The notes under the pieces were generated by a model. It did no database searches. It was given only the letters and a program-made list of their open reading frames with translations, and was not told the origin of the DNA. 64,000 nt of DNA from the sequence record OR352958.1; one strand, written 5' to 3'. The position numbers and the translations under genes were made by a program. This stretch comes from Escherichia phage AV128. Shown piece after piece: positions 9,980-33,542 of the stretch. Within the stretch, counting starts at the first letter, position 1. Each line of letters opens with the position of its first letter.

Positions 9980-10275
9980 GATTCACTAGCCTTGAAGCTC
10001 CAACCTTCCAGACCGACTTCGCCGCAACAGCGTGCCTTTGCCCATCCAGTCATCAACCATTGGCGGTGCTTCTCGAAATACGTTGGCCTTTCTGAATAAC
10101 AATGAACAAGGCCGTTATCGTCAATGGCCACGTAACGCGTCCAAGGTGCAACGGGTACAACTACGTCGGGGTGACCCTCTGGCCAAGGCTTGATGTGTAC
10201 AGCTGTGTTCAAGTCTACGTTTAACACGCTTCCTAACCGCTCGTCTTGTTCCTTGTCGATGCCTAAGTAAATCAT
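9958..10275 (-). CDS. hypothetical protein (105 aa)
   Basis: track ORF in operon. Confidence 0.45.
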   Translation of the reverse strand: MIYLGIDKEQDERLGSVLNVDLNTAVHIKPWPEGHPDVVVPVAPWTRYVAIDDNGLVHCYSERPTYFEKHRQWLMTGWAKARCCGEVGLEGWSFKASESCVEVQL

Positions 10276-19230: not shown

Positions 19231-19389
19231 TGTTGACGTAAATTTACGAAAAATAAAACTGAAAATCAGTTTAATTAAAGTGGCATTGCCGCCATAGTTT
19301 TTAGTTGCTACTGGCGGCGACTGAAGGCATAATTAAGTTATCCCAAACGGGGAATATAAAATAAACTAATTTATTTAAGGACTGTGAAT

Positions 19390-20229
19390 ATGGCCGAAGC
19401 AATCAAAGTATTATCTAAAGAAGAAAAACAAGCAGCCGCAGCAGAACGTCGTCGCGTGGCTGAAGAAAAACGCCTGGCTAAAAAGAAAGAAGCCGAAGAA
19501 AAACGCCAGAAGCGTGAGCAGGAAAAACAAGCCAAGCGTGAAGAAGCCGCGCTGAAGCGCAAACAGGCTGCTGATGAGAAGGCTCAGAAGCGTGCTGAAG
19601 AAGCAGCTAAGAAAGCTAAAGAGCGTGCAGAAAAGGCTGCTGCTAAGAAAGCAGAGCGTGAAGCCGCTAAAGCAGCAAAAGAAATCGAAAAGGCAAAGGC
19701 CAAAGAAGAAGCCAAGCGCCTGAAAGCTGAACAAGCTGCTGCTAAGAAAGCAGAGCGTGATCAAGCCCGTGCTGCAGCAAAGGCCGAAAAAGAGAAGGCT
19801 AAAGAAGAAGCGAAAGCGAAACGCAAGGCAGAGCGTGAAGCTGCTAAGATCGCGGCGAAAGAAGCTGCAGAACAGCAAAAAGAACAGCGTAAGAAAGAAG
19901 CTGAAGAACGTCGCAAAGCCATCGCAGAGCGCAAGGCTGCCAAAAAGGCAAACGGTCAGCGCCGTGCAAAAGCTACTCACTTCATCTACACTGGCAACGG
20001 CCTGAGCCAGCCGCAGGAGCACTCCACCCGTGGGCGCGTTCTGGCGGCGATCAAAGAAGGCGAAGTTGGCGTGGCGCAGTCTATCGATGAGCTGGGCGAG
20101 AAAGTTAAAGATCAACTGTTTGGCGCTTCCGTTCGCTCCTACCTGAGCAAGCTGGAAGAGATGGGCCACATCGAGTTTGTCGATGTTGAATCCAACGACG
20201 ATGCCGAAGACGGTGATCAAGCGGAATAA
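19390..20229 (+). CDS. K/A/E-rich coiled-coil protein with globular C-terminal domain
   Basis: about 190 aa of Lys/Ala/Glu/Arg low-complexity repeats, then a ~90-aa conventional domain; track start 19384 is GTG, ATG at 19390 has TAAGGA upstream. Confidence 0.55.
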   Translation: MAEAIKVLSKEEKQAAAAERRRVAEEKRLAKKKEAEEKRQKREQEKQAKREEAALKRKQAADEKAQKRAEEAAKKAKERAEKAAAKKAEREAAKAAKEIEKAKAKEEAKRLKAEQAAAKKAERDQARAAAKAEKEKAKEEAKAKRKAEREAAKIAAKEAAEQQKEQRKKEAEERRKAIAERKAAKKANGQRRAKATHFIYTGNGLSQPQEHSTRGRVLAAIKEGEVGVAQSIDELGEKVKDQLFGASVRSYLSKLEEMGHIEFVDVESNDDAEDGDQAE

Positions 20230-20257: not shown

Positions 20258-20286
20258 GACCCACACTTGTTGTGGGTCTTTTTTCG
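20258..20286 (+). terminator. intrinsic terminator
   Basis: GACCCACA-CTTGT-TGTGGGTC followed by TTTTTTCG. Confidence 0.65.
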
Positions 20287-20310
20287 TCTGTACTAAATAG
20301 AAATGACTTG

Positions 20311-20339
20311 TTGCTGTAAAATAATTTAGCTATTATACT
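20311..20339 (+). promoter_or_regulatory. sigma70-like promoter of the enzyme unit
   Basis: TTGCTG-N17-TATACT, 25 nt before ATG 20364. Confidence 0.45.
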
Positions 20340-20363
20340 TCTCATATCACCCACAAAGGACAA

Positions 20364-21359
20364 ATGAACATGAAACAACCTGTAATGATTATCGGCGGCG
20401 GTTTGGCAGGACTTATTACCGCGTGTCACTTCCCGAACTCTATTGTGTACGAAGCAGGGGAACGAGCGCAACAGCACAAGGCGCTGCTACGCTTTCGCGG
20501 CGAAGAAGTAAGCCGTATTACCGGAATCCCTTTTAAGGCCGTGACAGTTGACAAGGCTGTGTATTTTCGCGGCAACTACTACCACGACCATTGCCCAATC
20601 AACCTTGCCAATATGTATTCCATGAAGGTCACCAATCAGTTTGGCAGCCGTTCAATCATGAAGCTTAAAACTGCAACGCGTTATATTGCGCCTGATGACT
20701 TTTATGATCAGCTTGTCGACAAACTGGGTGACCGCATATTCTTTAATACTCCGGTAGATACTCTTTGCGGCTATAGCGAGACGCCAATCATCAACACGTC
20801 GCCGCTGCCAGTCATGATGAAGCTGGCTGGGATTGATCAAAAGCTTGATTTCTCATTCGATAAAGCAAACATTCGTGTTTACCGCTTTAAGATTAAACGT
20901 AAGTGTGATTTGTATCAGACAATTTACTTCCCTGACTACTCCGTCAGAACTTATCGCGCATCAATTACTGGTGACACGCTTATCATTGAAACAATTCCTT
21001 TGGTCAGCGTGAGTGAAGCTGCAGTTGAAGCCGCTGGCGGCATCACTCGTTACCGTGACATGAAGCTGCGCGCAGAAGTCGACGAAGTGTTGACAGCCTT
21101 TGGCCTCTCATGGAGTGACATTGCTCTTGAAGAAGTTGAAAAGGTCGACCAGAAATATGGCAAGATTGTCGACATTCCGAAAGACTTGCGACACGCCCTA
21201 CTCCTGCAGCTGACTATGGATTTGAACGTGTTCAGTGTCGGTCGATTTGCTACCTGGCGCAACATTTTGCTTGATGACGTTGCCCATGACCTTGTTGAAG
21301 TTGAAAAACTCATCAAAGCAAATAACTATCAAAAATTTGCTTATATTGCTAATAAATAA
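20364..21359 (+). CDS. FAD/NAD(P)-binding Rossmann-fold oxidoreductase-like protein
   Basis: N-terminal MIIGGGLAGL dinucleotide-binding motif; family not resolved. Confidence 0.45.
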   Translation: MNMKQPVMIIGGGLAGLITACHFPNSIVYEAGERAQQHKALLRFRGEEVSRITGIPFKAVTVDKAVYFRGNYYHDHCPINLANMYSMKVTNQFGSRSIMKLKTATRYIAPDDFYDQLVDKLGDRIFFNTPVDTLCGYSETPIINTSPLPVMMKLAGIDQKLDFSFDKANIRVYRFKIKRKCDLYQTIYFPDYSVRTYRASITGDTLIIETIPLVSVSEAAVEAAGGITRYRDMKLRAEVDEVLTAFGLSWSDIALEEVEKVDQKYGKIVDIPKDLRHALLLQLTMDLNVFSVGRFATWRNILLDDVAHDLVEVEKLIKANNYQKFAYIANK

Positions 21360-21424
21360 TTTGCTTTCTGCTTCAATGGGCGTATACTTTAATCATTGAA
21401 GCAGAACTCATAGAGGAAACGAAA

Positions 21425-21871
21425 ATGAAACGAATCACTGGAATCGCGCTTGCCGCTACTGCTATTCTCGGCACCATGTATATGGAAGCGACTGAAGCTG
21501 CCATCCGCACTTCCGATTCAGTCGCTGTTTACGATTGCGAAGCGATGGACGGTAAGACCGCAGCAACGACTGGTGCGAAGATTACCACTTACATCGGTGT
21601 GAATGAGCAAGAAGGTCTGAATATTCAGATTCAGGGATTCACAGGGAAAGGTGCCAACCGTACTCCGTGGATGCAACGTTTCACTTTCGTCCAGCCTCGT
21701 TCAACTGGCGGCTTTATCAATCTGATTGGTGAAAACCGTTCTGGTGCAGAAATCTTTACATCAATGAGTTCTAATAATGAACCAAAGAAAAGTTTTCAGT
21801 TGCTTTATAACGCACAATTCGTTTATCATTGCACCTTCTCTGGTGATCAGCAACTAGTGAATTACCGTTAA
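21425..21871 (+). CDS. secreted/periplasmic protein (148 aa)
   Basis: N-terminal signal-peptide-like hydrophobic stretch ITGIALAATAILG; two Cys. Confidence 0.5.
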   Translation: MKRITGIALAATAILGTMYMEATEAAIRTSDSVAVYDCEAMDGKTAATTGAKITTYIGVNEQEGLNIQIQGFTGKGANRTPWMQRFTFVQPRSTGGFINLIGENRSGAEIFTSMSSNNEPKKSFQLLYNAQFVYHCTFSGDQQLVNYR

Positions 21872-21884
21872 TAGGACAATTAAA

Positions 21885-22688
21885 ATGAAAGTTGAATTAA
21901 TTCGATACACCCAAGATGCACTTGACCTTTTGCTGGAAACAAAGAACACGCGCATGACTGGTAAGCCTGTCTCTGAGATGACGGAATCAGAGAAGCAAGA
22001 GCATTGGCGCTACATGCTTGATACAATCAAGTCTCCTTTTGACTTTGTGGACTATATCTTTGATATCACAGCTGTATCAAAGAACATGACCCATCAGATG
22101 GTACGCACACGCACAGGCGCATATCAAGAACGCACCAGCCGCGCTCAGGAGTCGTCTGCATTTGATGCGATTCGTCCTGCTAAATTCACTTACCCAGAGG
22201 ATGATCCAAAGGGATGGACTCGCCATGACGAGAAGGCCGCTGAACTGGCAGAGAAGTGGGATGATGCGATGGCGACTATCGATGCTTTGTATCAAGAGCT
22301 TCGCGCGGCTGGCGCAGAGATTCAAGATGCACGTGCCGTATTGCCTTCTAATATGCAAACGCATATCATGGCAAAGTTCAACTTGCGCACGCTGCAGCAG
22401 ATGGCGTCAAACCGCTTGTGCACGCGCACGCAAGGAGAGTATCAAGAAGTATTCCGCGCAATGGTTGCGGAAGTCCTCAAGGTGCACCCTTGGGCGAATC
22501 CATTACTGCAGCCGCAATGCATTGGTATGGGTAAGTGCGCATTTCCTCGTCACGGTAAAGCCCATTGCCCTTGGTATCGTGATTGGATGGATACCACGGC
22601 ACAGCAAGAAGAGTTGCGCATCCAGTTTTGGAGTGCGATGCCAATCACCAACAATCCAGTTGCTAAAGATGGAGTATCAAAAGGATGA
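21885..22688 (+). CDS. thyX: ThyX-like flavin-dependent thymidylate-synthase-family protein (divergent)
   Basis: THQMVRTRTGAYQERTSR resembles the ThyX HQxVRHR...S region but reads RTR; ARAVLPSNMQT...NxR matches the ThyX C-terminal block; extra Cys-rich tail. Confidence 0.5.
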   Translation: MKVELIRYTQDALDLLLETKNTRMTGKPVSEMTESEKQEHWRYMLDTIKSPFDFVDYIFDITAVSKNMTHQMVRTRTGAYQERTSRAQESSAFDAIRPAKFTYPEDDPKGWTRHDEKAAELAEKWDDAMATIDALYQELRAAGAEIQDARAVLPSNMQTHIMAKFNLRTLQQMASNRLCTRTQGEYQEVFRAMVAEVLKVHPWANPLLQPQCIGMGKCAFPRHGKAHCPWYRDWMDTTAQQEELRIQFWSAMPITNNPVAKDGVSKG

Positions 22689-23557
22689 GCATTAAAAACA
22701 GCGAAATCTTAAACGTATTCGACCTTGACGGAACGCTGTTTGATGACCGTTGGCGCTTAGACCGCATCAAGGTGGCAGGTCCGTTGTCAGACTATGATGA
22801 TTATCACAGCGGTATTGGTTATGATCAGTTCTATCCTCACATTGCATCAGCAGTAGAGTCGGCATCTCTTCGCGGTGAGGCGGTTGAATATTGGACTGCA
22901 AGGCCAGAAAAATACAGACAAGTGACTTTTGAACGTCTGGACAATGTTTTTCCTTTTGATGAATTTACAATCAAGATGAGAGACTATGGCGACAAACGTC
23001 CATCAACTATTATGAAATCTGCATGGCTATCGCACGCATTGCGGCACGGCGATTATCGAATCATCAATGTATTCGACGACCGACAAGACGTACTCGCGCG
23101 GATGCAAGATGAAGCATTGTATTATAATTCCGTTGCTCAAAATAAAATCTCTTTTACATTTAATCTTTGCAAGGCAGGTGAAGTGGTGCAACAATTAGCA
23201 ATTGATCCAAGCGCAACAGGGCAAGAAGAGACTAAGGCTGTGGAAGTTGAACAATCTCCGGCAACTGCCGCCGATATTCTTGATGCAATGGCAGCAACCT
23301 TCCGTGAGCGCAACGCTGTCTATGGCGATAACGCTGTGATGGTAGGTCAGGTTATGCAAGTGCTTTTCCCTAATGGCGTGACGTTGAAAACGCCGGAAGA
23401 CTACCACATGTGGCATCTGTTCGAACTTAAGATTGTCAAGCTTACACGCTTCGCAATCAGCGGCCTGAAGCACGAAGACTCTATACACGATGATGGTGTT
23501 TACAGCGCCATGTGTGAACGTCTTGTTAACACCCATAATATTAATTTCAATAAATAG
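22685..23557 (+). CDS. HAD-superfamily phosphatase fused to an uncharacterised C-terminal domain
   Basis: FDLDGTLFD motif I near N-terminus; NVFDDRQD later; C-terminal ~100 aa unassigned. Confidence 0.45.
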   Translation: MSIKNSEILNVFDLDGTLFDDRWRLDRIKVAGPLSDYDDYHSGIGYDQFYPHIASAVESASLRGEAVEYWTARPEKYRQVTFERLDNVFPFDEFTIKMRDYGDKRPSTIMKSAWLSHALRHGDYRIINVFDDRQDVLARMQDEALYYNSVAQNKISFTFNLCKAGEVVQQLAIDPSATGQEETKAVEVEQSPATAADILDAMAATFRERNAVYGDNAVMVGQVMQVLFPNGVTLKTPEDYHMWHLFELKIVKLTRFAISGLKHEDSIHDDGVYSAMCERLVNTHNINFNK

Positions 23558-23622
23558 TTTACTTGTGCGTTTCGATGAGTTATATTTATCTCATCGAAAC
23601 GAAGTCCAAAAAGGATAAATAA

Positions 23623-24306
23623 ATGAAAAAAGTAATTGTTGTAACTGGCTGCAATTCCGGTCTTGGTAAATCCATTTTTGACACCCTTGGCGCTTACGGT
23701 CATGAAGTTGTCGGTATTGATTTGGAGAACGGCTATGACATCCGTAACGCGAAACAGATGAAAGAGCTTCTCTCTCAATACGACGTAGAAGGCTTGATCA
23801 ACTGCGCTGGCGTCAACTCCAACAACTGGTTCGAAGATGTTAACTACGAAGAGTTCAATCGCGTTATGCACACCAACGCCTTCTCTTTCGTCAACACGAC
23901 TCAGGCCGCGCTGAAAAGTCTTATTGACAACAAAGGTTTTGTGATCAACATCGTTTCCAACGCTGCGCATATTCCTATGACGTCCAGCTTGTGTTATAAT
24001 GCTTCCAAGGCTGCTGCGCTCATGATTAGCAAGCAGATGGCTCACGAGCTTACGCCTAAATACGGGATCACGGTATTCTCTATTAGTCCTAACAAGCTAC
24101 GTGGTACTGGCATGTCCAAACAGATTGAAGATGCTGTTTGCGCGACTCGCGGCTGGACTCCTGAGTATGCTGCTGAATACCAGAAAAAGGCGTTGATGAA
24201 TGGATTGGAGACTGAGCCGCAAGTAATTGCTGACTTCATTCGACATATCTTAATTACGGGCGCATGGCGCTTTATGTCTGGCACTGATATTCCATTTGGT
24301 AAATAA
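23623..24306 (+). CDS. short-chain dehydrogenase/reductase (SDR)
   Basis: VTGCNSGLGK cofactor-binding motif and YNASK catalytic motif. Confidence 0.65.
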   Translation: MKKVIVVTGCNSGLGKSIFDTLGAYGHEVVGIDLENGYDIRNAKQMKELLSQYDVEGLINCAGVNSNNWFEDVNYEEFNRVMHTNAFSFVNTTQAALKSLIDNKGFVINIVSNAAHIPMTSSLCYNASKAAALMISKQMAHELTPKYGITVFSISPNKLRGTGMSKQIEDAVCATRGWTPEYAAEYQKKALMNGLETEPQVIADFIRHILITGAWRFMSGTDIPFGK

Positions 24307-24402
24307 ATCACGAACACTTGAAGTTATCACACCCGCTCCTGAAAAGAAACAGGACGAAGACAACACAGTAATCAATCAATAATATTTAATTAAGGAAACA
24401 AA

Positions 24403-24954
24403 ATGCCACATTTTAAAATTGAACAAATCGCCCTGTCAATTCCAGATGCTCAGCGCGCACAGGATTTCTTGGCTAAAATTGGTCTGACAGAGTGGTTCCA
24501 TGATCACGTTGTTGCTACTGGTCGCGTATTTGAAGCTGATGAATTCAAAGGTCAGCGTGGATATTGCACCAATGAAGCTGACTTGCGCTTCAATTATCAA
24601 GCTGGAAACGGAACTGATGGCGGCGCTGGTAAGCCTCTTGAGCTTGAAATCCTTGACTACACAAAGGGGTGTAACTGGATCAGCGAAAACATTGAAATGC
24701 TCGATGCGCACGACAATCAGGTTAGCCATCTTGGTATGCACGTGACTGCCGCTGAACTTGCTGAATGGCGCAAGTTCTTTAAAGAAGAAGGCATTCAGGT
24801 TGCGCAGGAAGTTGTGACCGGCTCTCACACCAACCCAAACATTGCTGGTCAGCGTCGTTACAACTATGTGATCTTTGATACGCGTGAAATCATTGGTGTT
24901 GACCTTAAGTTCATCGTGCGGTTGAATCAAGACGGTACTCCGTACACTGTATAA
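24403..24954 (+). CDS. putative VOC/glyoxalase-fold protein
   Basis: weak by-eye resemblance only (SHLGMHV, GVDLKFIV). Confidence 0.3.
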   Translation: MPHFKIEQIALSIPDAQRAQDFLAKIGLTEWFHDHVVATGRVFEADEFKGQRGYCTNEADLRFNYQAGNGTDGGAGKPLELEILDYTKGCNWISENIEMLDAHDNQVSHLGMHVTAAELAEWRKFFKEEGIQVAQEVVTGSHTNPNIAGQRRYNYVIFDTREIIGVDLKFIVRLNQDGTPYTV

Positions 24955-24970
24955 CGAATCGTGAATCTGT

Positions 24971-24996
24971 GGCCGTCCTAATGGGCGGCCTTTTTG
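24971..24996 (+). terminator. intrinsic terminator
   Basis: GGCCGTCC-TAAT-GGGCGGCC then TTTTT. Confidence 0.6.
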
Positions 24997-25008: not shown

Positions 25009-25551
25009 GTGTTATTTCTCCCTTATGACTTCGAAACAACCGGATTAACCGTGCACCCGAAAGCGCCGCTTGGGATGCAGCCGCGCCCTATTGAATTTGC
25101 AGGCCTGTTGACGGACGGCAAAGAGATTCTTGAAACGTTCGAGTTCATAATTAATCCTGAAATTGTGATTGAAGAAATCATCACAAAGATTACCGGATTA
25201 ACAAATGAAGACCTTGAGTGCAATCCACCATTCATCCATTTCGTTCCGCAACTAAAAGAAATATTCAAGAAGACGGATGCAACTATAGCGCACAACCATG
25301 CGTTTGATAAAAACATTCTTGACTATGCATTACAGCGCGAAGGTCTTACACTTGGTGATGTTAATTTTCCAGAAATAAACATTTGTACAGTAGAGCAAAC
25401 CTTGCCTATTTTTGGCCGAAGAGTTAAGCTTCAAGAGCTGTATGAATTATATTTCGGAAAATATGAACAGAAACACCGTGCATTAGACGACGTAATATTG
25501 CTGCACAAAGTTTGCCAACAAATTGGCGTATATGACATCTGGAGCAAATAA
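25009..25551 (+). CDS. DnaQ-like 3-prime to 5-prime exonuclease
   Basis: Exo motifs DFETTG, AHNHAFD, HRALDD; GTG start with GGAGG upstream. Confidence 0.6.
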   Translation: MLFLPYDFETTGLTVHPKAPLGMQPRPIEFAGLLTDGKEILETFEFIINPEIVIEEIITKITGLTNEDLECNPPFIHFVPQLKEIFKKTDATIAHNHAFDKNILDYALQREGLTLGDVNFPEINICTVEQTLPIFGRRVKLQELYELYFGKYEQKHRALDDVILLHKVCQQIGVYDIWSK

Positions 25552-25708: not shown

Positions 25709-28606
25709 ATGTTTCCACAATTGAGAGTTCGCAGCGGTTACACGTTCAAAGAAGTATATGGACGGCATCCTGAAATTATAGCACGGCTCAAAGAGTTGGG
25801 CTGCGAAGTCGCGGCATTAGTTGATAACAATACATGGGGTCACGTCCGATGGGAAAAGGAATGTCAGAAGAATGATATCAAGCCTGTGTTCGGCATGGAG
25901 ATTCCAATCATCGACCCTGATGCAGACCCGAAAAAGGGATTCAAACCGAAGGCTTGGATATTGGCTCTTGACCTGAAATCCTTTTACAATGCGACCACGC
26001 TTGCAACACAACGCGGCGGACTGACCCGTGCAGAGTTCGGGGCGCTCGATGGAGTCATTAAATTCTGTGGCGGTGCCGTGGAGTTGCTGCGACCAGAGGA
26101 CTACGATTATATAGACGTCAACCCATCATCGTTCCTTTTGGCCAAGCGCCAGGTATTGGCTCACCGCAGCAACGGAAGGCCGCTTGTTTTAACCGGATAC
26201 AACCACATGCCTTCACCTGCGCACGTTGACTTTGCTTATGCTTGGGAAGTTCGCGACACGGTTAAGCCGCACTGCATCGTTGACGCGGAAGACTTGCGCA
26301 AACAGCTTAAAGGAATCCTGACCGAAGATGAGTTGAATCAAGCAACGGCCAATGCGGTTGACATTGCAAACGGAATCGTGGGACTTGACCTGAAGCTGCG
26401 CAAGGCACCGATTATCCACCTTGCTGGTGACATGGTAAAACTTGCTCGCGAGGGGATGGAGTACCGCCTTAAGGCAGGTCACATCAAAGAATGGACTCAG
26501 GAATATGAGGACCGATTCAACGAAGAGATTCACCAGATTCAGCTGAAAGATTTCGACTCATACTTTCTGGTGGTAGCGGACCTTGTTCGATTCGCAAAAA
26601 CAAAAATGCTCGTCGGACCCGCTCGCGGCTCATCGGCTGGTTCACTGGTTTGTTATTGCCTCGGCATCACGGAAGTCGACCCAATCCCGTATAAGCTGCT
26701 ATTTGCCCGATTCATCGACGTAAGCCGCGCCGACCTTCCTGATATTGATATTGACTTTGAGGATACCAAACGCTATATGGTGTTTGATTACCTTAAAGAA
26801 AAATACGGCGAAATGAACGTTGCAAAGCTTGGCAACATCAACACGCTTAAGGCCAACTCAGTAATGGCTCAGGTTGGTAAGAAGTTCAACATTGGCTATC
26901 ACGAAACGGCCAACATTAAAAACGCATTGCTTGAATACTCATCCGGTGACGCCCGTTATGGTCACGGCCTGGAGGATACCTTTGCAACAACGACCACGGG
27001 TCAAGAGTTCGTGGCGAAATATCCTGATGCCGCGCGTTGCATGGGCGACCTTGAGATTCACCCGTCCCACACAGGGGTGCACGCAGCGGGAATCATTGTG
27101 TGTAATGACCCAATCTCTGATTACTGTACTGTAACTGCAGAAGGGATTGCGCAAATCGATAAGCCTGACAGCGAATACCTTAACCTTTTGAAGCTTGATG
27201 CACTGGGCCTTCGTACTCTCGGCATTATTTCTGATACAGGCGTTATTGATGCTGAAACGCTTTACGGAATCAAGCTTGATGATCAAAGCGTACTTGACAT
27301 TCTTAACGAAAACAAGATGTCAGGCATCTTCCAGTTTGAAGGTGACGCTGTACGCTCAGTAACAAACTTTGTGCACGTCGACAACTTTAACAAAATCGAC
27401 AACCTGACAGCTTTGGGTCGACCTGGCCCGTTGTCATCCGGTATGGCCCAGAAATACATTGAACGCGCGGCAGGGCGTGCGCCGATTGAATACGACGTGC
27501 CGCAGCTTGAGCCGTACTTAAAAGAGACTTACGGAGTGTTTCTTTACCAAGAGCAAATCATGGCCGTGGTTAAAGAGATTGGTTCATTTGACTGGGCGAA
27601 AACGTCCGCTGTACGTAAGGCAATGTCAGGCCGTAAGGGTGAGGAATACTTCAACAAGCTTGGCGAGGACTTCGTTGCAGGCGCAATAAATAACGGCGTA
27701 CCGGAAGCGGATGCAAGAAAGCTTTGGCAAGCAATGGCTACGTTCGGGTCATGGGGCTTTAACAAGTCGCACTCCGTGTCATACGCGGTCGTGACCTACT
27801 GGACATTGTGGCTTAAGCGACACTACCCGTTGGAATTTGCCGCTGCCTGCTTACGCGCTGCTAAGGACGAAGACCAGACGATTGCGATATTACGTGAACT
27901 TGCGAAGGAAGGCGTGGATTACGTTCCAATCGACCCTGATCACTCTTCAATGAACTGGACAATCGCGAACGGAAAGCTAATCGGCGGCATTATGAACGCG
28001 AAAGGGTACGGAATGGTGAAGGCGATGAAGTACATCGAAGCGCGTGAAGCCGGAACCTTAACGCAGAAGCAAAAGGACGCATTGGCCAATGCTGAAGTAA
28101 AATATGGCGACCTTACAGAGATGCACACAAAGTTCGGCTGGGCGTATAATGACCCGTATCTGATTGGTGTGACGTCCGGCGCTTCAATACGCCAGATGAA
28201 GGAAGTCGGTGATGACGAGCGCGCAATAGTAATCGGCAAGTTGACAAAGAAAGTGCTTGCGGACGAGAACGAAGCAACACGCATCCGTAAACGACTTGAG
28301 CGCGGCATCTATACAAAGCACGGCAAGCTTAAAAAGGGTCTTCAAGCTGATGGCCGCTACGCAGAGTTTGACCAGTACGGGAACAAGCTTGAGACTCAGT
28401 TCATCGACCTTATGTGCAAAGACGACTCGACCGACTCGCCAATGCGCTTCAGGATTCGTCCAGAGAAGTTCCAGAAGTACGGGAAGTACATCGCTGAAAA
28501 CGTCGGGAACGGCGCATTCTTCCTGATGAAAGGTCGTAAGCTTGAAGGCATTGACATGTTCATCGTTGACGTGATCAAACAGGTGTATCCAGATGGCAAC
28601 AAATAA
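25709..28606 (+). CDS. DNA polymerase III alpha-like (DnaE-family) replicative polymerase
   Basis: GPARGSSAGSLVCYCLGITEVDP and DIDIDFED palm-domain blocks as in DnaE; 965 aa. Confidence 0.7.
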   Translation: MFPQLRVRSGYTFKEVYGRHPEIIARLKELGCEVAALVDNNTWGHVRWEKECQKNDIKPVFGMEIPIIDPDADPKKGFKPKAWILALDLKSFYNATTLATQRGGLTRAEFGALDGVIKFCGGAVELLRPEDYDYIDVNPSSFLLAKRQVLAHRSNGRPLVLTGYNHMPSPAHVDFAYAWEVRDTVKPHCIVDAEDLRKQLKGILTEDELNQATANAVDIANGIVGLDLKLRKAPIIHLAGDMVKLAREGMEYRLKAGHIKEWTQEYEDRFNEEIHQIQLKDFDSYFLVVADLVRFAKTKMLVGPARGSSAGSLVCYCLGITEVDPIPYKLLFARFIDVSRADLPDIDIDFEDTKRYMVFDYLKEKYGEMNVAKLGNINTLKANSVMAQVGKKFNIGYHETANIKNALLEYSSGDARYGHGLEDTFATTTTGQEFVAKYPDAARCMGDLEIHPSHTGVHAAGIIVCNDPISDYCTVTAEGIAQIDKPDSEYLNLLKLDALGLRTLGIISDTGVIDAETLYGIKLDDQSVLDILNENKMSGIFQFEGDAVRSVTNFVHVDNFNKIDNLTALGRPGPLSSGMAQKYIERAAGRAPIEYDVPQLEPYLKETYGVFLYQEQIMAVVKEIGSFDWAKTSAVRKAMSGRKGEEYFNKLGEDFVAGAINNGVPEADARKLWQAMATFGSWGFNKSHSVSYAVVTYWTLWLKRHYPLEFAAACLRAAKDEDQTIAILRELAKEGVDYVPIDPDHSSMNWTIANGKLIGGIMNAKGYGMVKAMKYIEAREAGTLTQKQKDALANAEVKYGDLTEMHTKFGWAYNDPYLIGVTSGASIRQMKEVGDDERAIVIGKLTKKVLADENEATRIRKRLERGIYTKHGKLKKGLQADGRYAEFDQYGNKLETQFIDLMCKDDSTDSPMRFRIRPEKFQKYGKYIAENVGNGAFFLMKGRKLEGIDMFIVDVIKQVYPDGNK

Positions 28607-30868: not shown

Positions 30869-31426
30869 ATGAGCAATATTAATTGGGAAGATGATTTGCC
30901 GCAGGTTGCTCCTGAGAGCATTCAAGAGCGCCTTGCGCGCTTAGTATCTGAACTGGCAGAACGCCAAGAAGCTTTGACAGAGCTTGAAGATGAAGCTGAT
31001 ATGCAAAAGCAGCGTATCAGTGAAATCAAAACTGTTTTGCTTCCTGGCGTTATGGATGAGCTTGGCGTGTCCGAAATCAAGCTTGAGGACAAGACCAAAA
31101 TCAAGGTCGAGTCCAAGGTGAATGCTTCAATCAAGAAAGAAAACGAATTAAAAGTTTTCGATTGGCTTGTAAACAACGGTTACGGCGGCCTGATCAAGTC
31201 CAGCGTCACGGCTGAGTTTGGTCGCGAAGAAATCGAACAGGCGCAAGAGATTGTTGCCGCGCTGCGTGAAGATGGTGTTGAAGCCACATTGAAACAAGGC
31301 GTTCATTCTGCTACACTGAAGTCATTTGTAAAAGAACAGCTGGAAGCAGGCAATCCAGTTAGTGAAGATATTAGCGTTTTTGAATACAAAGAAGCTAAAA
31401 TAACCTTGCCTAAAAGCAAAAAGTAA
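30869..31426 (+). CDS. hypothetical coiled-coil protein (185 aa)
   Basis: track ORF with RBS; sits beside SSB, possibly recombination-associated. Confidence 0.45.
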   Translation: MSNINWEDDLPQVAPESIQERLARLVSELAERQEALTELEDEADMQKQRISEIKTVLLPGVMDELGVSEIKLEDKTKIKVESKVNASIKKENELKVFDWLVNNGYGGLIKSSVTAEFGREEIEQAQEIVAALREDGVEATLKQGVHSATLKSFVKEQLEAGNPVSEDISVFEYKEAKITLPKSKK

Positions 31427-31485
31427 TTTAACCTTTATCTTGAAATCAGGTTGCCACGAAACTTGATACTATAGGAAAATATCAA

Positions 31486-32346
31486 ATGTCTAAGAAAGAA
31501 ACTACCGAAGTTGCAGCGAAAAACACCCAGATGTCCGCTATGGCTGATTTTGTCGACATGACCGATTTTGGCGCTGGTTTTGAAGGTGCCGATGCCGATG
31601 CGTATGCCATTCCTTTTATCGTCGTCCTGCAGAAGATGTCTCCTATGGTCGACGAAGATGATCCAAAACACGTTCCTGGTGCAAAAGCTGGCATGCTTTA
31701 CAACACCGTAACGGGTGAGTTGTACGACGGAAAGAAAGGCGTTCAGATCATTCCTTGCGCATTCAAACGCACCTTCATCCTTTGGGGCGGTCGCGAATCC
31801 GATGATAAAGGCTTCAAAGGTGAATTTACTAAAGAGCATGTTGACGCAGAAGTCGCGGCAGGCCGCGCTGTTGAAATCAACGGTAAGGTCTTTGTGCCGG
31901 ACGAAAATGGCAAGGTGCACGAGAAGAAATCACCTTACTACGCTGATACGCGCAACCACTTTGTGATCCTTTTGAACGAAGAAACAGGCGAATTTGGCAG
32001 CGCCATGCTTTCCCTGACTTCTTCAATGATCAAGCCGTCTCGCATGCTGATGACCGCGCTTCAGCAGAAGAAAGTTCAGACTCCACAAGGTCTGAAAACG
32101 CCGCCGACCTTTATGAACATTGTTCGCATGGGCACTGCATCTCAGTCCAAAGACGGCAACACCTGGTCAGTTCTTAAGTTTGAGCTGGAAGGTCTGGTGC
32201 AGGATAAAGGTCTGTACGAAGTCGCTAAAGCATTCCACAACGACGTAGTTGGCGGCAACGTTAACATTGACCGCAGCAAGCAGGAAGAAGCAAGCGGTGC
32301 CGCTGGTCCTGTCAATGAAACTCCTACCGACGCAGAAGAGTTTTAA
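31486..32346 (+). CDS. putative single-stranded DNA-binding protein, T7 gp2.5-like
   Basis: acidic C-terminal tail ending in Phe (TDAEEF), as in gp2.5-type SSBs; by-eye only. Confidence 0.4.
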   Translation: MSKKETTEVAAKNTQMSAMADFVDMTDFGAGFEGADADAYAIPFIVVLQKMSPMVDEDDPKHVPGAKAGMLYNTVTGELYDGKKGVQIIPCAFKRTFILWGGRESDDKGFKGEFTKEHVDAEVAAGRAVEINGKVFVPDENGKVHEKKSPYYADTRNHFVILLNEETGEFGSAMLSLTSSMIKPSRMLMTALQQKKVQTPQGLKTPPTFMNIVRMGTASQSKDGNTWSVLKFELEGLVQDKGLYEVAKAFHNDVVGGNVNIDRSKQEEASGAAGPVNETPTDAEEF

Positions 32347-32403: not shown

Positions 32404-32922
32404 ATGATAGAAAGAATTGTACCGCTCTTGAAGATTCTGGCCCTTGTTGGCGCGTTTGCCGCTGGATCATACGTTGAAGACCTGCAGCAAACCAACGCAT
32501 CACTGGCCAAGGATAATCAATATCTGACATCGCTTAATGAGCGTAAGGACAAGATAAATGCACTCGAAGAGCAAATTGCATCTTTACAGGTTGAATCGGC
32601 ATCGGCATATGAGAAAGGTCGCCAGGAAGCGCAACAGGTTGCTGATGACACTATTGCTCGTTACAAGTCTGGGAATATCAAGTTGCGCGCGCAACTCAGC
32701 TGCTCCCGTGAGTTACTCAGGAGTATGCCCGACTCTGCGACCACTGGACGCCTCTCTATCCCAGAAGGAAACTGTGGACTATCAGAAGAGGATGTCAGAT
32801 TTCTTGTTCAGTTCGCCGCAGAAACAAATCGATTAAAAGAGAAAGTTAATAGCTTGATTGATACTTATAATCAGGCTAAAATAAAAATCGATCAATTCAA
32901 TGCATCAAAGGAAAATAAATGA
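32404..32922 (+). CDS. Rz: i-spanin (Rz-like)
   Basis: N-terminal transmembrane segment then coiled coil; a lipoprotein ORF is embedded in another frame. Confidence 0.5.
   Translation: MIERIVPLLKILALVGAFAAGSYVEDLQQTNASLAKDNQYLTSLNERKDKINALEEQIASLQVESASAYEKGRQEAQQVADDTIARYKSGNIKLRAQLSCSRELLRSMPDSATTGRLSIPEGNCGLSEEDVRFLVQFAAETNRLKEKVNSLIDTYNQAKIKIDQFNASKENK
32609..32836 (+). CDS. Rz1: o-spanin (Rz1-like lipoprotein) embedded in Rz
   Basis: MRKVARKRNRLLMTLLLVTSLGISSC: basic n-region, hydrophobic core, lipobox-like ISSC; wholly inside 32404..32922 in a different frame. Confidence 0.45.
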   Translation: MRKVARKRNRLLMTLLLVTSLGISSCARNSAAPVSYSGVCPTLRPLDASLSQKETVDYQKRMSDFLFSSPQKQID

Positions 32923-33542
32923 AACAGATTTATGCAAACATTCGCCAGTGGGCTTCTGACCGTAACATCATCCAAGGTTGCGACCTTAAGGACCAATACC
33001 CGAAGCTTATCAGCGAGTTCGGGGAGTTAACCGACCACGTTGATCAACTCCATGACCTTGTGTTCTTCGACCCTGAAATTGGATATACAGAGCAAGCCAT
33101 CTGTGACTTGCAGGCAGCAATTAAGGACGACATCGGCGATTGCCTTGTTGTGTTGACCATCCTGGCAGCGCAAAACGGTACTGAAATCGAAAACATTAAT
33201 GGCGGCGGTTGCGCTGATAAAGGTGCTCACCCTCATTCATTTATCCTTCGCCTGGCAAAGACCCTTGGACGACTTGGTGATGCAATCGCTAAGAATCAGA
33301 CCATGGATATTGACGTGACCATCATGGCCGCAGTCGATTACCTTTCCGGCGTAGCGCATGATTATGGCCTTCGCTTATCCGACTGTGCGCAAGCGGCCTA
33401 CGAAGACATCAAGGACCGCAAAGGTGTCATGTACAACGGAACGTTCATCAAATCTACTGATCCAGCTTATGAGCACTCCTGCAAAATGGTAAAGAAGCTG
33501 GAACTTGAAGACCGTGTGATCAGAGAAGTTACAGGACAATAA
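32919..33542 (+). CDS. mazG: MazG-like nucleoside triphosphate pyrophosphohydrolase
   Basis: EFGELTDH and DDIGDCLVVL acidic motifs. Confidence 0.5.
   Translation: MKQIYANIRQWASDRNIIQGCDLKDQYPKLISEFGELTDHVDQLHDLVFFDPEIGYTEQAICDLQAAIKDDIGDCLVVLTILAAQNGTEIENINGGGCADKGAHPHSFILRLAKTLGRLGDAIAKNQTMDIDVTIMAAVDYLSGVAHDYGLRLSDCAQAAYEDIKDRKGVMYNGTFIKSTDPAYEHSCKMVKKLELEDRVIREVTGQ

Follow-up and report, generated by a model that had tools for sequence, protein, structure and literature searches.

A replicase-adjacent, phage-only gene cassette with an altered ThyX-like protein as a candidate route to hypermodified thymidine

Introduction

In the phages M6, ViI, PaMx11, PhiW-14 and SP10, hypermodified thymidines are made by a route in which a ThyA-family hydroxymethylase acts on deoxyuridine monophosphate (dUMP), followed by a 5-hydroxymethyldeoxyuridine (5-hmdU) DNA kinase and an aGPT-Pplase transferase that work on the DNA (Lee et al. 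2018 and 2021; PMC8989533). A flavoenzyme can take part, as PaMx11 gp47 does, and none of the known routes makes use of the ThyX family (PMC8989533). Here, we describe a cassette of genes around a ThyX-like protein at positions 20,311 to 24,996 of a 64,000-nucleotide stretch of Escherichia phage AV128 (record OR352958.1; the whole stretch is referred to as the window). The outcome proposed for the cassette resembles that of the known systems, namely a bulky C5 group on part of the thymidines and protection from nucleases. The enzymes differ, since hydroxymethylase, 5-hmdU kinase and aGPT-Pplase are not detectable in the window.

The DNA of the Pbunavirus phages F8 and 14-1 resists enzymes with TG in their site (Yee et al. 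2025, bioRxiv 10.1101/2025.03.31.646159). It contains new nucleosides of 362 and 390 Da, described as sugar-like hypermodified thymidine, which replace about one quarter of the thymidines (bioRxiv 10.1101/2025.03.31.646159). No genes were assigned to the modification in that study, and the known hypermodification genes are missing from the family (bioRxiv 10.1101/2025.03.31.646159). A literature search found no later paper assigning genes to the Pbunavirus modification. Biosynthesis is likewise unassigned for the 5-(dihydroxypentyl)uracil-type bases of SP-15, YerA41 and Carin-5, which carry a C-C-linked polyhydroxyalkyl chain on uracil C5.

Wifcevirus phages are myoviruses of 66-72 kb and distant relatives of the Pseudomonas genus Pbunavirus (PB1-like phages). 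They show an unexplained resistance to restriction in E. coli, as seen with an in vivo panel of restriction-modification (RM) systems. About 28 Escherichia and Shigella phages, all Wifcevirus, match the 4.7-kb stretch analysed here at 93-98% identity, the closest being vB_EcoM_WFH (98.0%). We consider it somewhat probable that the cassette encodes a ThyX-based route to hypermodified thymidine (C5-substituted deoxyuridine) for phage DNA, and not to ordinary thymidine monophosphate (dTMP).

Results

Active site of the ThyX-like protein

The initial annotation, made from the letters of the window, had drawn the region as a self-contained enzyme transcription unit. All six plus-strand open reading frames (ORFs; 20364-24954) were found where it had placed them, and every motif that it quoted is present:

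20364..21359, + strand, FAD-binding flavoprotein of 331 aa (MIIGGGLAGL); phage-only family, phrog_4828
21425..21871, + strand, signal-peptide ORF of 148 aa; Sec-type signal-peptide-like N-terminus (MKR, then a hydrophobic stretch)
21885..22688, + strand, ThyX-family flavoenzyme of a distinct subfamily, 267 aa
22685..23557, + strand, HAD fusion of 290 aa (FDLDGTLFD); capless HAD phosphatase (1-173) and DUF6378-like four-helix bundle (195-280)
23623..24306, + strand, classical SDR of 227 aa with VTGCNSGLGK cofactor motif and YNASK catalytic motif; optional, paired with the VOC gene
24403..24954, + strand, divergent VOC (glyoxalase/dioxygenase-fold)-like protein of 183 aa; optional cassette member

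A Pfam check agreed for three of the proteins (Thy1, E 2.9e-30; HAD_PNKP, E 5.4e-08; adh_short, E 1e-31), and the first two ORFs (331 aa and 148 aa) match no Pfam family.

The ThyX-like protein matches Pfam Thy1 (PF02511) with 105.9 bits against a cutoff of 24.8, over profile positions 2-191 of 191. With the NCBIfam equivalog model for thyX, TIGR02170, it scores 81.8 bits, below the trusted cutoff of 87.9. The active site was surveyed in 73 distinct cassette copies whose mutual identity goes down to about 30%. Residues are numbered after T. maritima ThyX (TM0449), and the alignment is gap-free over the signature region. Q75, R78, R80 and R90 are present in all 73 copies, R147 and R174 in 72 (the exception being an alignment gap) and N163 in 70; R165 and E182 are also conserved. 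These dUMP and flavin contacts, together with the Thy1 domain, are common to the cassette proteins and canonical ThyX (TM0449; phages P23-45, Bxz1-like phages and cyanophages).

The cassette proteins differ from canonical ThyX in an R-T/S/N-R signature, in Ile53, Ala/Val91, Arg178 and Phe59, and in being always paired with a second flavoprotein. Every copy has Ile for His53, Phe for His59, Ser for Thr55 and Thr, Ser or Asn for His79, and Arg replaces His178 in 72/73. Position 91 is Ala or Val in 71/73, Thr or Ile otherwise, and Tyr in none. At the position of Ser88, Thr is found in 54 copies, Ser in 16 and Ala in 3. In the window protein RTRTGAYQERT replaces the RHR(X)7S signature, and His53, His79 and Tyr91 have become Ile, Thr and Ala. 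His53, His79, Ser88 and Tyr91 (RHR...S) are all kept in 8/8 control ThyX proteins from unrelated phages (Thermus, Ruegeria, Mycobacterium, E. coli ST32, Bacillus, Synechococcus, Campylobacter and Vibrio).

Tyr91 and Ser88 of ThyX have been termed strictly conserved, and mutation of Y91 makes flavin oxidation about 1000-fold slower (PMC8316439, PMC11940539). His53 stacks on the folate pterin and the reduced flavin and is hydrogen-bonded to Tyr91 and Asn85 (PMC11940539). The survey suggests that the nucleotide-holding half of the ThyX-like active site is under purifying selection, and that the folate/methylene-transfer half has been rebuilt in a fixed, different way. As the replacements are themselves conserved (Ile53 in 73/73), they point to selection for a different active site and not to decay, and the rebuilt half argues against an ordinary thymidylate synthase. 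The loss of His53, His79 and Tyr91 and the missed TIGR02170 cutoff bear out the early description of a divergent ThyX-like protein in a non-standard dTMP-supply set. The other early suggestion, a flavin/folate-recycling module supporting ThyX, gained nothing from the analysis, the folate-stacking histidine being lost in this subfamily. ThyX needs no DHFR-type recycling, and the canonical enzyme reduces its own flavin with NADPH.

Four C-terminal cysteines, C179, C212, C218 and C228 (22419-22568; RLC...C-x5-C...C-P), are conserved in 6 of 14 aligned ThyX-like sequences, which group with Wifcevirus and Pbunavirus. They are not found in the other subclade, whose C-terminus differs. These residues could hold an Fe-S cluster or zinc, neither of which is part of canonical ThyX.

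Conservation and distribution of the cassette

Eighty IMG/VR loci were fetched via the flavoprotein and searched with all window proteins; the counts refer to the 67 loci with a complete interval. All 67 are collinear in the order flavoprotein, ThyX-like protein, HAD/C-terminal domain, SDR, VOC and DnaQ exonuclease, and PolIII alpha comes after them. Of the two parts of the HAD fusion, the C-terminal domain is present in 66/67 loci and the HAD domain is detectable in 57/67. The SDR and VOC genes are both present in 39 loci, both missing in 24, and only one of them is found in 3. Contigs that end within 1.9 kb are the only ones on which the flavoprotein lacks a ThyX-like neighbour. The backbone of the PB1 and Wifcevirus group (Dda helicase and a Lys/Ala/Glu-rich protein) is missing in 42/67 loci, and the gene linkage is therefore more than shared ancestry of one genus. 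In the window, the two genes that invariably follow the cassette downstream are:

25009-25551, + strand, DnaQ-like 3'-5' exonuclease
25709-28606, + strand, PolIII-alpha-type polymerase

By tblastn, the flavoprotein was found in 361 phage records and the HAD fusion in 387. Beyond Wifcevirus, the hits comprise about 290 Pbunavirus genomes and phages of Serratia, Xanthomonas, Pantoea and Salmonella, and also clearly different lineages, among them podophages of Cronobacter (one, 42 kb), a Ralstonia phage of 40 kb and Rhizobium phages of 190-206 kb. A reciprocal search from the ThyX-like subfamily in 185,579 species genomes returned 9 contigs, all from metagenome-assembled genomes (MAGs), of which the long enough ones carry phage replicase genes. 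The flavoprotein gene lies upstream in 7/7 contigs with enough upstream DNA. The flavoprotein family itself had no match in the 185,579 species genomes. Cellular homologues were thus set aside as a clue to function, the flavoprotein being absent from the genomes searched and the ThyX-like subfamily occurring only on phage-like MAG contigs.

As judged from these collections, the cassette is widely conserved, phage-only and not lineage-specific. By gene content, the real unit appears as a three-gene core (flavoprotein, ThyX-like protein and HAD fusion) with an optional SDR/VOC pair and a Wifcevirus-only insertion, always abutting the replicase. The view of all six genes as one functional unit did not hold, given that only the three-gene core is conserved, the SDR and VOC genes are optional and the signal-peptide ORF is confined to Wifcevirus. 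This 148-aa ORF has the claimed MKR and hydrophobic N-terminus, matches no family in Pfam or PHROGs, and was seen only in Wifcevirus loci (L009-L011), outside the conserved cassette.

Partner proteins

By its fold, the flavoprotein appears to be a member of the class of UDP-galactopyranose mutase (UGM), protoporphyrinogen oxidase (PPO) and amine oxidase. The MIIGGGLAGL motif behind the earlier label of a FAD/NAD(P) Rossmann protein is present, and the generic Rossmann assignment gives way to this fold class. The protein is only 11-17% identical to members of the UGM/PPO/flavin amine oxidase class and about 100 residues shorter than most of them. It has no Pfam match at E <= 0.1 (neither GLF nor amine oxidase) and no NCBIfam match. 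Against E. coli Glf, hhalign aligned only 21 Rossmann columns, with a probability of 4.5%. Membership of the UGM family by sequence was accordingly rejected, as single-sequence and profile searches of PDB sequences matched only the GxGxxG motif and the hhalign comparison with Glf did the same. The record of phage Mansfield carries the label UDP-galactopyranose mutase, citing HHpred 100% to 1I8T; this was not reproduced here. PHROGs lists phrog_4828 as an unknown-function family. A large protein collection holds 1954 relatives of the flavoprotein; among the 120 relatives listed, none has a precomputed Pfam domain. A fold search in BFVD returned uncharacterised family members only. The many invariant Arg and Lys residues of the flavoprotein suggest a phosphorylated substrate.

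The start of the HAD fusion overlaps the stop of the ThyX-like gene (ATGA, 22685-22688), which suggests translational coupling. A structure model of the protein (pLDDT 89.7) shows the capless HAD domain at 1-173 and the four-helix bundle at 195-280. HAD motifs I-IV (DxDxT, T, K, DD) are intact, with D13, D15, T71, K111, D131 and D132 invariant in 44 sequences, and HAD_PNKP is matched with a score of 33.5 (cutoff 27.6). In Foldseek the nearest structures to the HAD domain are the T4 Pnkp 3'-phosphatase (best 5uj0, E 1.9e-5) and class B acid phosphatases (AphA-like). The C-terminal helical domain is the best-conserved part of the fusion, above the HAD domain. DUF6378 (PF19905) is matched weakly by 9/16 family members (best E 1.7e-4); the domain of the window protein taken alone gives no match. 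The phosphatase of the initial annotation thus stands, and the domain that it had left unnamed is a DUF6378-like four-helix bundle.

The 3'-phosphatase HAD fold is common to this protein and T4 Pnkp, and the HAD fusion carries the DUF6378-like bundle where T4 Pnkp has its kinase domain. No P-loop kinase domain is found in the HAD fusion and no kinase family was matched in Pfam or NCBIfam. The name 'polynucleotide kinase/phosphorylase' given to its PHROGs family (phrog_4889) is therefore wrong or misleading as regards the kinase. A MazG-type NTP pyrophosphatase was also considered for the C-terminus and rejected: hhalign against the 'MazG-like' ORF of the phage gave a probability of 1.7%, and a PDB-sequence profile search was empty. 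With only the weak DUF6378 match left, the idea of a bifunctional dTTP-clearing enzyme is unsupported.

The SDR matches adh_short with 110.4 bits, and the profile and both motifs agree with the early call. It is of the generic carbonyl-reductase/FabG type and lies under every specific NCBIfam cutoff. The VOC assignment is plausible but weak: the window protein itself stays below threshold with Glyoxalase_4 (17.8 bits, cutoff 27, E 0.0042), 9/14 family members match this profile (best E 9.3e-6), and no PDB sequence is matched by the window protein.

Cassette and DNA phenotypes in Pbunavirus and Wifcevirus

The three core genes (flavoprotein, ThyX-like and HAD-DUF6378) are present in F8 and 14-1, with unchanged order and beside the same type of replicase. 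The core proteins of these phages are 40% (flavoprotein), 48.5% (ThyX-like protein) and 29-47.5% (HAD fusion) identical to those of the window. The Pbunavirus cassette differs from that of the window in having neither SDR, VOC nor signal-peptide ORF. The two genera also differ in the kind of evidence, which is a modified base shown by liquid chromatography-mass spectrometry in Pbunavirus and the presence of the genes in Wifcevirus.

Among 39 window ORFs, Pfam detected no ThyA-type dUMP hydroxymethylase, 5-hmdU DNA kinase or aGPT-Pplase transferase, and the Wifcevirus genome annotation lists none. Thirty further window ORFs likewise had no match to the kinases, transferases, dioxygenases, radical-SAM enzymes or pyridoxal phosphate (PLP) enzymes of known hypermodification routes; Pfam gave for them only matches to Pam3 gp33/gp34-like proteins, primase, helicase and ligase. 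The TET/JBP dioxygenase (5mYOX) route, with or without a ParB partner (PMC13229309), likewise had no Pfam match among the scanned ORFs. As no enzymes of known routes are found, the cassette is the part common to Wifcevirus and Pbunavirus when genes with recognisable metabolic-enzyme folds are compared, those for replication and structure set apart.

The window contains 13 EcoRI, 6 EcoRV and 6 EcoKI sites, so that avoidance of sites is not the explanation of the restriction resistance. F8 DNA is cut by EcoRI, and Wifcevirus resists systems such as EcoRV, whose site has no TG. In the BASEL panel, Wifcevirus is reportedly resistant also to EcoRI, again a site without TG.

Some sites depart from expectation in the whole window. 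XbaI (TCTAGA) sites number 0 against 17.8 expected, GATC 105 against 247 and BsaI 4 against 26.5. HindIII (AAGCTT) sites number 56 against 17.8 and CAGCAG 67 against 26.5, and the odds ratio of the TA dinucleotide is 0.69. Of all T in the window 26.5% precede G, a share near that of the thymidines modified in Pbunavirus ('one quarter').

Between F8 and 14-1, the ThyX-like proteins are 93.8% and the flavoproteins 97.3% identical, with differences in linkers and insertions, outside the conserved motifs. Divergence above that of the surrounding genes is seen in the HAD fusion (80%) and in several small ORFs (78-82%). For ORF70, the identity between F8 (L007, 3031-4227) and 14-1 (L008, 13997-15301) falls to 56%, against 91-99% for its neighbours. 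The protein carries DnaJ-like CxxCxGxG zinc-finger motifs as well as long coiled coils. As the most divergent neighbour, ORF70 came up in connection with the difference between 362 and 390 Da, but it looks like a zinc-finger/coiled-coil protein and not like an enzyme. No homologues of ORF69-71 of F8 and 14-1 were found in the window.

Bounds and surroundings of the unit

The elements that bound and divide the unit are as follows:

20258..20284, + strand, intrinsic terminator of the upstream gene; hairpin 20258-20278 with 8-bp GC-rich stem, 5-nt loop and T6
20298..20339, + strand, putative promoter region; weak sigma-70-like matches only
21366..21406, + strand, strong intergenic hairpin with 14-bp stem, without T-run (dG -19.1 kcal/mol, z -3.48)
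23568..23601, + strand, strong intergenic hairpin with 12+2 bp stem, without T-run (dG -22.1 kcal/mol, z -5.99, 0/200 shuffles)
24971..24995, + strand, intrinsic terminator; hairpin 24971-24990 with 8-bp stem (7 GC pairs) and T5

The upstream terminator has a dG of -15.8 kcal/mol (z -4.35) and 0/200 shuffles fold equally well; the downstream one has a dG of -17.4 kcal/mol (z -2.69). Both are marked at the same positions by independent annotators in phages Mansfield and WFH. The best promoter candidate, TAGAAA-16-AATAAT, agrees with the consensus at 9/12 positions. Seventeen such sites occur in the region against 10.9 expected by chance, so that 9/12 matches are not enriched beyond chance. Of the bounds first proposed, the terminators are confirmed as hairpins with T-runs, and the promoter remains a weak match. 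Rather than terminating transcription, the two internal hairpins may act in RNA processing or stability, or as attenuators. The unit is thus closed by terminators at both ends, but the word 'self-contained' sits poorly with two strong internal hairpins and with replicase genes that always follow directly downstream in related phages.

Phage Mansfield has an extra 71-aa ORF (10011-10226 of its locus) between the SDR and VOC genes, where the window has a 97-nt spacer (24306-24403). The cassette spacers appear as indel hot spots, since in several Wifcevirus genomes the megablast match to the cassette region is broken into 2-3 pieces. Directly upstream of the cassette (19384-20229) lies the gene of a 281-aa protein. 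Lys/Ala/Glu repeats make up nearly all of its first ~200 residues, and a conserved C-terminal domain (phrog_4765) comes after them. The homologue of this protein in Pbunavirus, F8 ORF66, is 53% identical over the C-terminal part and is annotated as structural in phiKTN6. The 281-aa protein may be a histone-like or DNA-associated virion protein.

In the replication module, two adjoining ORFs (30869-32346) match DUF7307/gp33-like (2.6e-37) and Pam3_Gp34 (4e-86), families that take their names from proteins of cyanophage Pam3. The conservation of these two ORFs extends well outside the enterobacterial phages. The ORF at 32919-33542 is labelled 'MazG-like pyrophosphatase' in related records (Bas101_0036); the label is unconfirmed, with no Pfam or NCBIfam match.

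Discussion

Among the options raised initially, DNA-base modification is the best-supported reading, in view of the active-site changes, the phage-only conservation and the phenotypes of the carriers; for Wifcevirus, a modified base is a prediction. Several points weigh against it. The link between the cassette and the Pbunavirus modification is circumstantial, by guilt by association, and no nucleoside or in vitro restriction analyses of Wifcevirus DNA were found in the literature. The restriction resistance of Wifcevirus could stem from one of its many small early proteins. As F8 DNA is cut by EcoRI and Wifcevirus resists the RM panel, the pattern of modification cannot be exactly the same in both genera, nor can the protection conferred by the three-gene and five-gene versions of the cassette be identical. 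Further, the reported TG-motif specificity implies a sequence-reading enzyme that works at the level of DNA and argues against a purely pool-level route, and no recognisable DNA-binding module is found in the cassette proteins. To our knowledge, ThyX-family enzymes act on free dUMP only. The cassettes of F8 and 14-1 are alike in their conserved motifs, so that the difference between 362 and 390 Da is not explained by the cassette. A second thymidylate synthase, which might have argued for neofunctionalisation, was looked for near the cassette; neither a ThyA nor a second ThyX was found in 97 loci (1.39 Mb). This result was taken as neutral for neofunctionalisation, and the ThyX-like protein could therefore still be the only source of dTMP of the phage.

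The last points lead to an account in which the cassette serves ordinary dTMP supply, through an unusual but working ThyX beside the replicase. The flavoprotein would then be a dedicated NAD(P)H:flavin reductase or oxidase, the HAD-DUF6378 protein would adjust nucleotide pools, SDR and VOC would be passengers, and the phenotypes would come from other genes. The clear Thy1 match with all dUMP-binding residues kept, the lack of any other thymidylate synthase in the cassette loci and the place beside a polymerase, which fits precursor supply, all agree with it, as does the occurrence of different modified bases with near-identical cassettes in F8 and 14-1. However, Tyr91, His53 and His79 are gone in 73/73 copies and kept in 8/8 controls, mutation of Y91 is about 1000-fold deleterious, the replacements are conserved, the TIGR02170 cutoff is missed, and no such need for a partner is seen in over 2000 phage records with ordinary ThyX. 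We consider ordinary dTMP supply rather unlikely. The nearest folds of the HAD domain, T4 Pnkp 3'-phosphatase and also the Pnkp1/Rnl/Hen1 complex, bring in a role in end healing or pool sanitising. The HAD protein would act as a T4 Pnkp-like 3'-phosphatase working with the phage ligase on nicked DNA or on defence-damaged tRNA. The ThyX-like protein would be a nucleotide-binding pseudoenzyme or regulator, and flavoprotein, SDR and VOC would detoxify or rebalance redox in a very fast infection cycle. The public annotation as 'polynucleotide kinase/phosphorylase' and an ATP-dependent ligase in the same replication module fit such a role. Yet the fusion has a DUF6378-like helical bundle for its C-terminal half and no P-loop kinase, the ligase lies 9 kb off, outside the conserved cassette, and strict co-linearity with the flavoprotein and with a ThyX-like protein that keeps all catalytic arginines is hard to square with a pseudoenzyme. 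End healing is hence judged quite improbable.

A further account takes the cassette as auxiliary sugar or lipid metabolism, in which flavoprotein, SDR, VOC and signal-peptide protein remodel the host envelope (e.g. O-antigen, superinfection exclusion) and a thymidylate synthase adjoins them by chance. It draws on the UDP-galactopyranose mutase annotation of the first gene in Mansfield from HHpred, on the placing of the SDR under 'moron, auxiliary metabolic gene' in PHROGs, and on the dependence of Wifcevirus on the O16 O-antigen, which contains galactofuranose made by the host Glf. We regard this as very improbable.

For the preferred reading, a ThyX-based route to hypermodified thymidine, the following chemistry is proposed. 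The ThyX-like enzyme would still activate C5 of dUMP on its flavin, without the standard folate-dependent reductive methylation. An exocyclic-methylene intermediate would be trapped by an oxygen nucleophile, or a carbon unit other than the folate-derived methylene would be used. The flavoprotein would take a redox or carbon-unit-handling step, the capless HAD domain would remove phosphate from a nucleotide-linked or DNA-linked intermediate, and SDR and VOC, where present, would modify the side chain. This would yield a C5-substituted deoxyuridine with a sugar-derived group, making virion DNA uncuttable by restriction enzymes. Such a route would explain why Wifcevirus resists restriction and where the 362 and 390 Da thymidine derivatives of Pbunavirus come from.

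Two chemical variants were compared with these masses. With an ether or O-glycoside on 5-hmdU, 5-hmdU plus tetritol gives 362.13 and 5-hmdU plus pentose gives 390.13. With a C-C bond between dUMP and an aldose, 362.13 corresponds to deoxyuridine (dU) plus pentose plus 2H minus H2O, and 390.13 to dU plus hexose minus H2O. Both variants fit the published masses equally well. The bases of the SP-15 type exceed thymidine by 88 and 104 Da and that of F8 by 120 Da, which fits the series C4H8O2, C4H8O3, C4H8O4; by analogy, the F8 base may be C-C linked. SP-15, YerA41 and Carin-5 have a family-A polymerase and glycosyltransferase clusters, unlike the cassette phages, and no Bacillus, Yersinia or Cobetia phage was among the 10 commonest host names in the flavoprotein search.

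In UGM, N5 of the reduced flavin bonds covalently to C1 of the sugar. ThyX uses free formaldehyde directly via a flavin-N5 adduct (PMC8316439 / PMC11940539). A more specific variant, speculative and unlikely in this exact form, would join the two: the ThyX-like protein and its UGM/PPO-fold partner would carry out flavin-mediated alkylation of dUMP C5 by the aldehyde carbon of a sugar or sugar phosphate, giving a C-C-linked 5-(polyhydroxyalkyl)-deoxyuridine. It would combine the flavin-N5 carbon relay of ThyX, which accepts formaldehyde, with the flavin-N5-to-sugar-C1 iminium of UGM. On this view, the nucleoside of 362.13 Da in F8 would correspond to 5-(tetrahydroxypentyl)-dU, a fully hydroxylated relative of the 5-(4,5-dihydroxypentyl)uracil of SP-15, and that of 390.13 Da in 14-1 to a ring-closed hexose C-glycoside. 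The terminal sugar phosphate would be taken off by the HAD domain, the chain would, in Wifcevirus and similar phages, be deoxygenated or epimerised by SDR and VOC, and the dedicated PolIII-alpha replicase would incorporate the triphosphate.

Independently of any link to DNA modification, what stands, at the level of sequence, is a large phage-only ThyX subfamily without Tyr91, His53 and the histidine of RHR. It is, in the loci compared, always paired with a second flavoprotein, and the pair lies beside PolIII-alpha replicases. No description of the subfamily, of its flavoprotein pairing or of its replicase-adjacent position was found in a literature search.

Pbunavirus phages are among the most used therapy phages against Pseudomonas aeruginosa, and host END nucleases sense their hypermodified thymidine. 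The cassette is the best available candidate for the pathway behind this sugar-decorated base. If the proposal is true, the cassette would encode the first DNA-base modification route that relies on the ThyX family in place of ThyA-type hydroxymethylases, and would represent new flavoenzyme chemistry for C5-functionalised nucleotides. The cassette would also provide a sequence marker for hypermodified genomes among many uncultured phage contigs, given the 1954 relatives of the flavoprotein. Such a marker would matter for the choice of therapy phages, for sequencing artefacts and for the predicted sensitivity of phages to modification-dependent defences.

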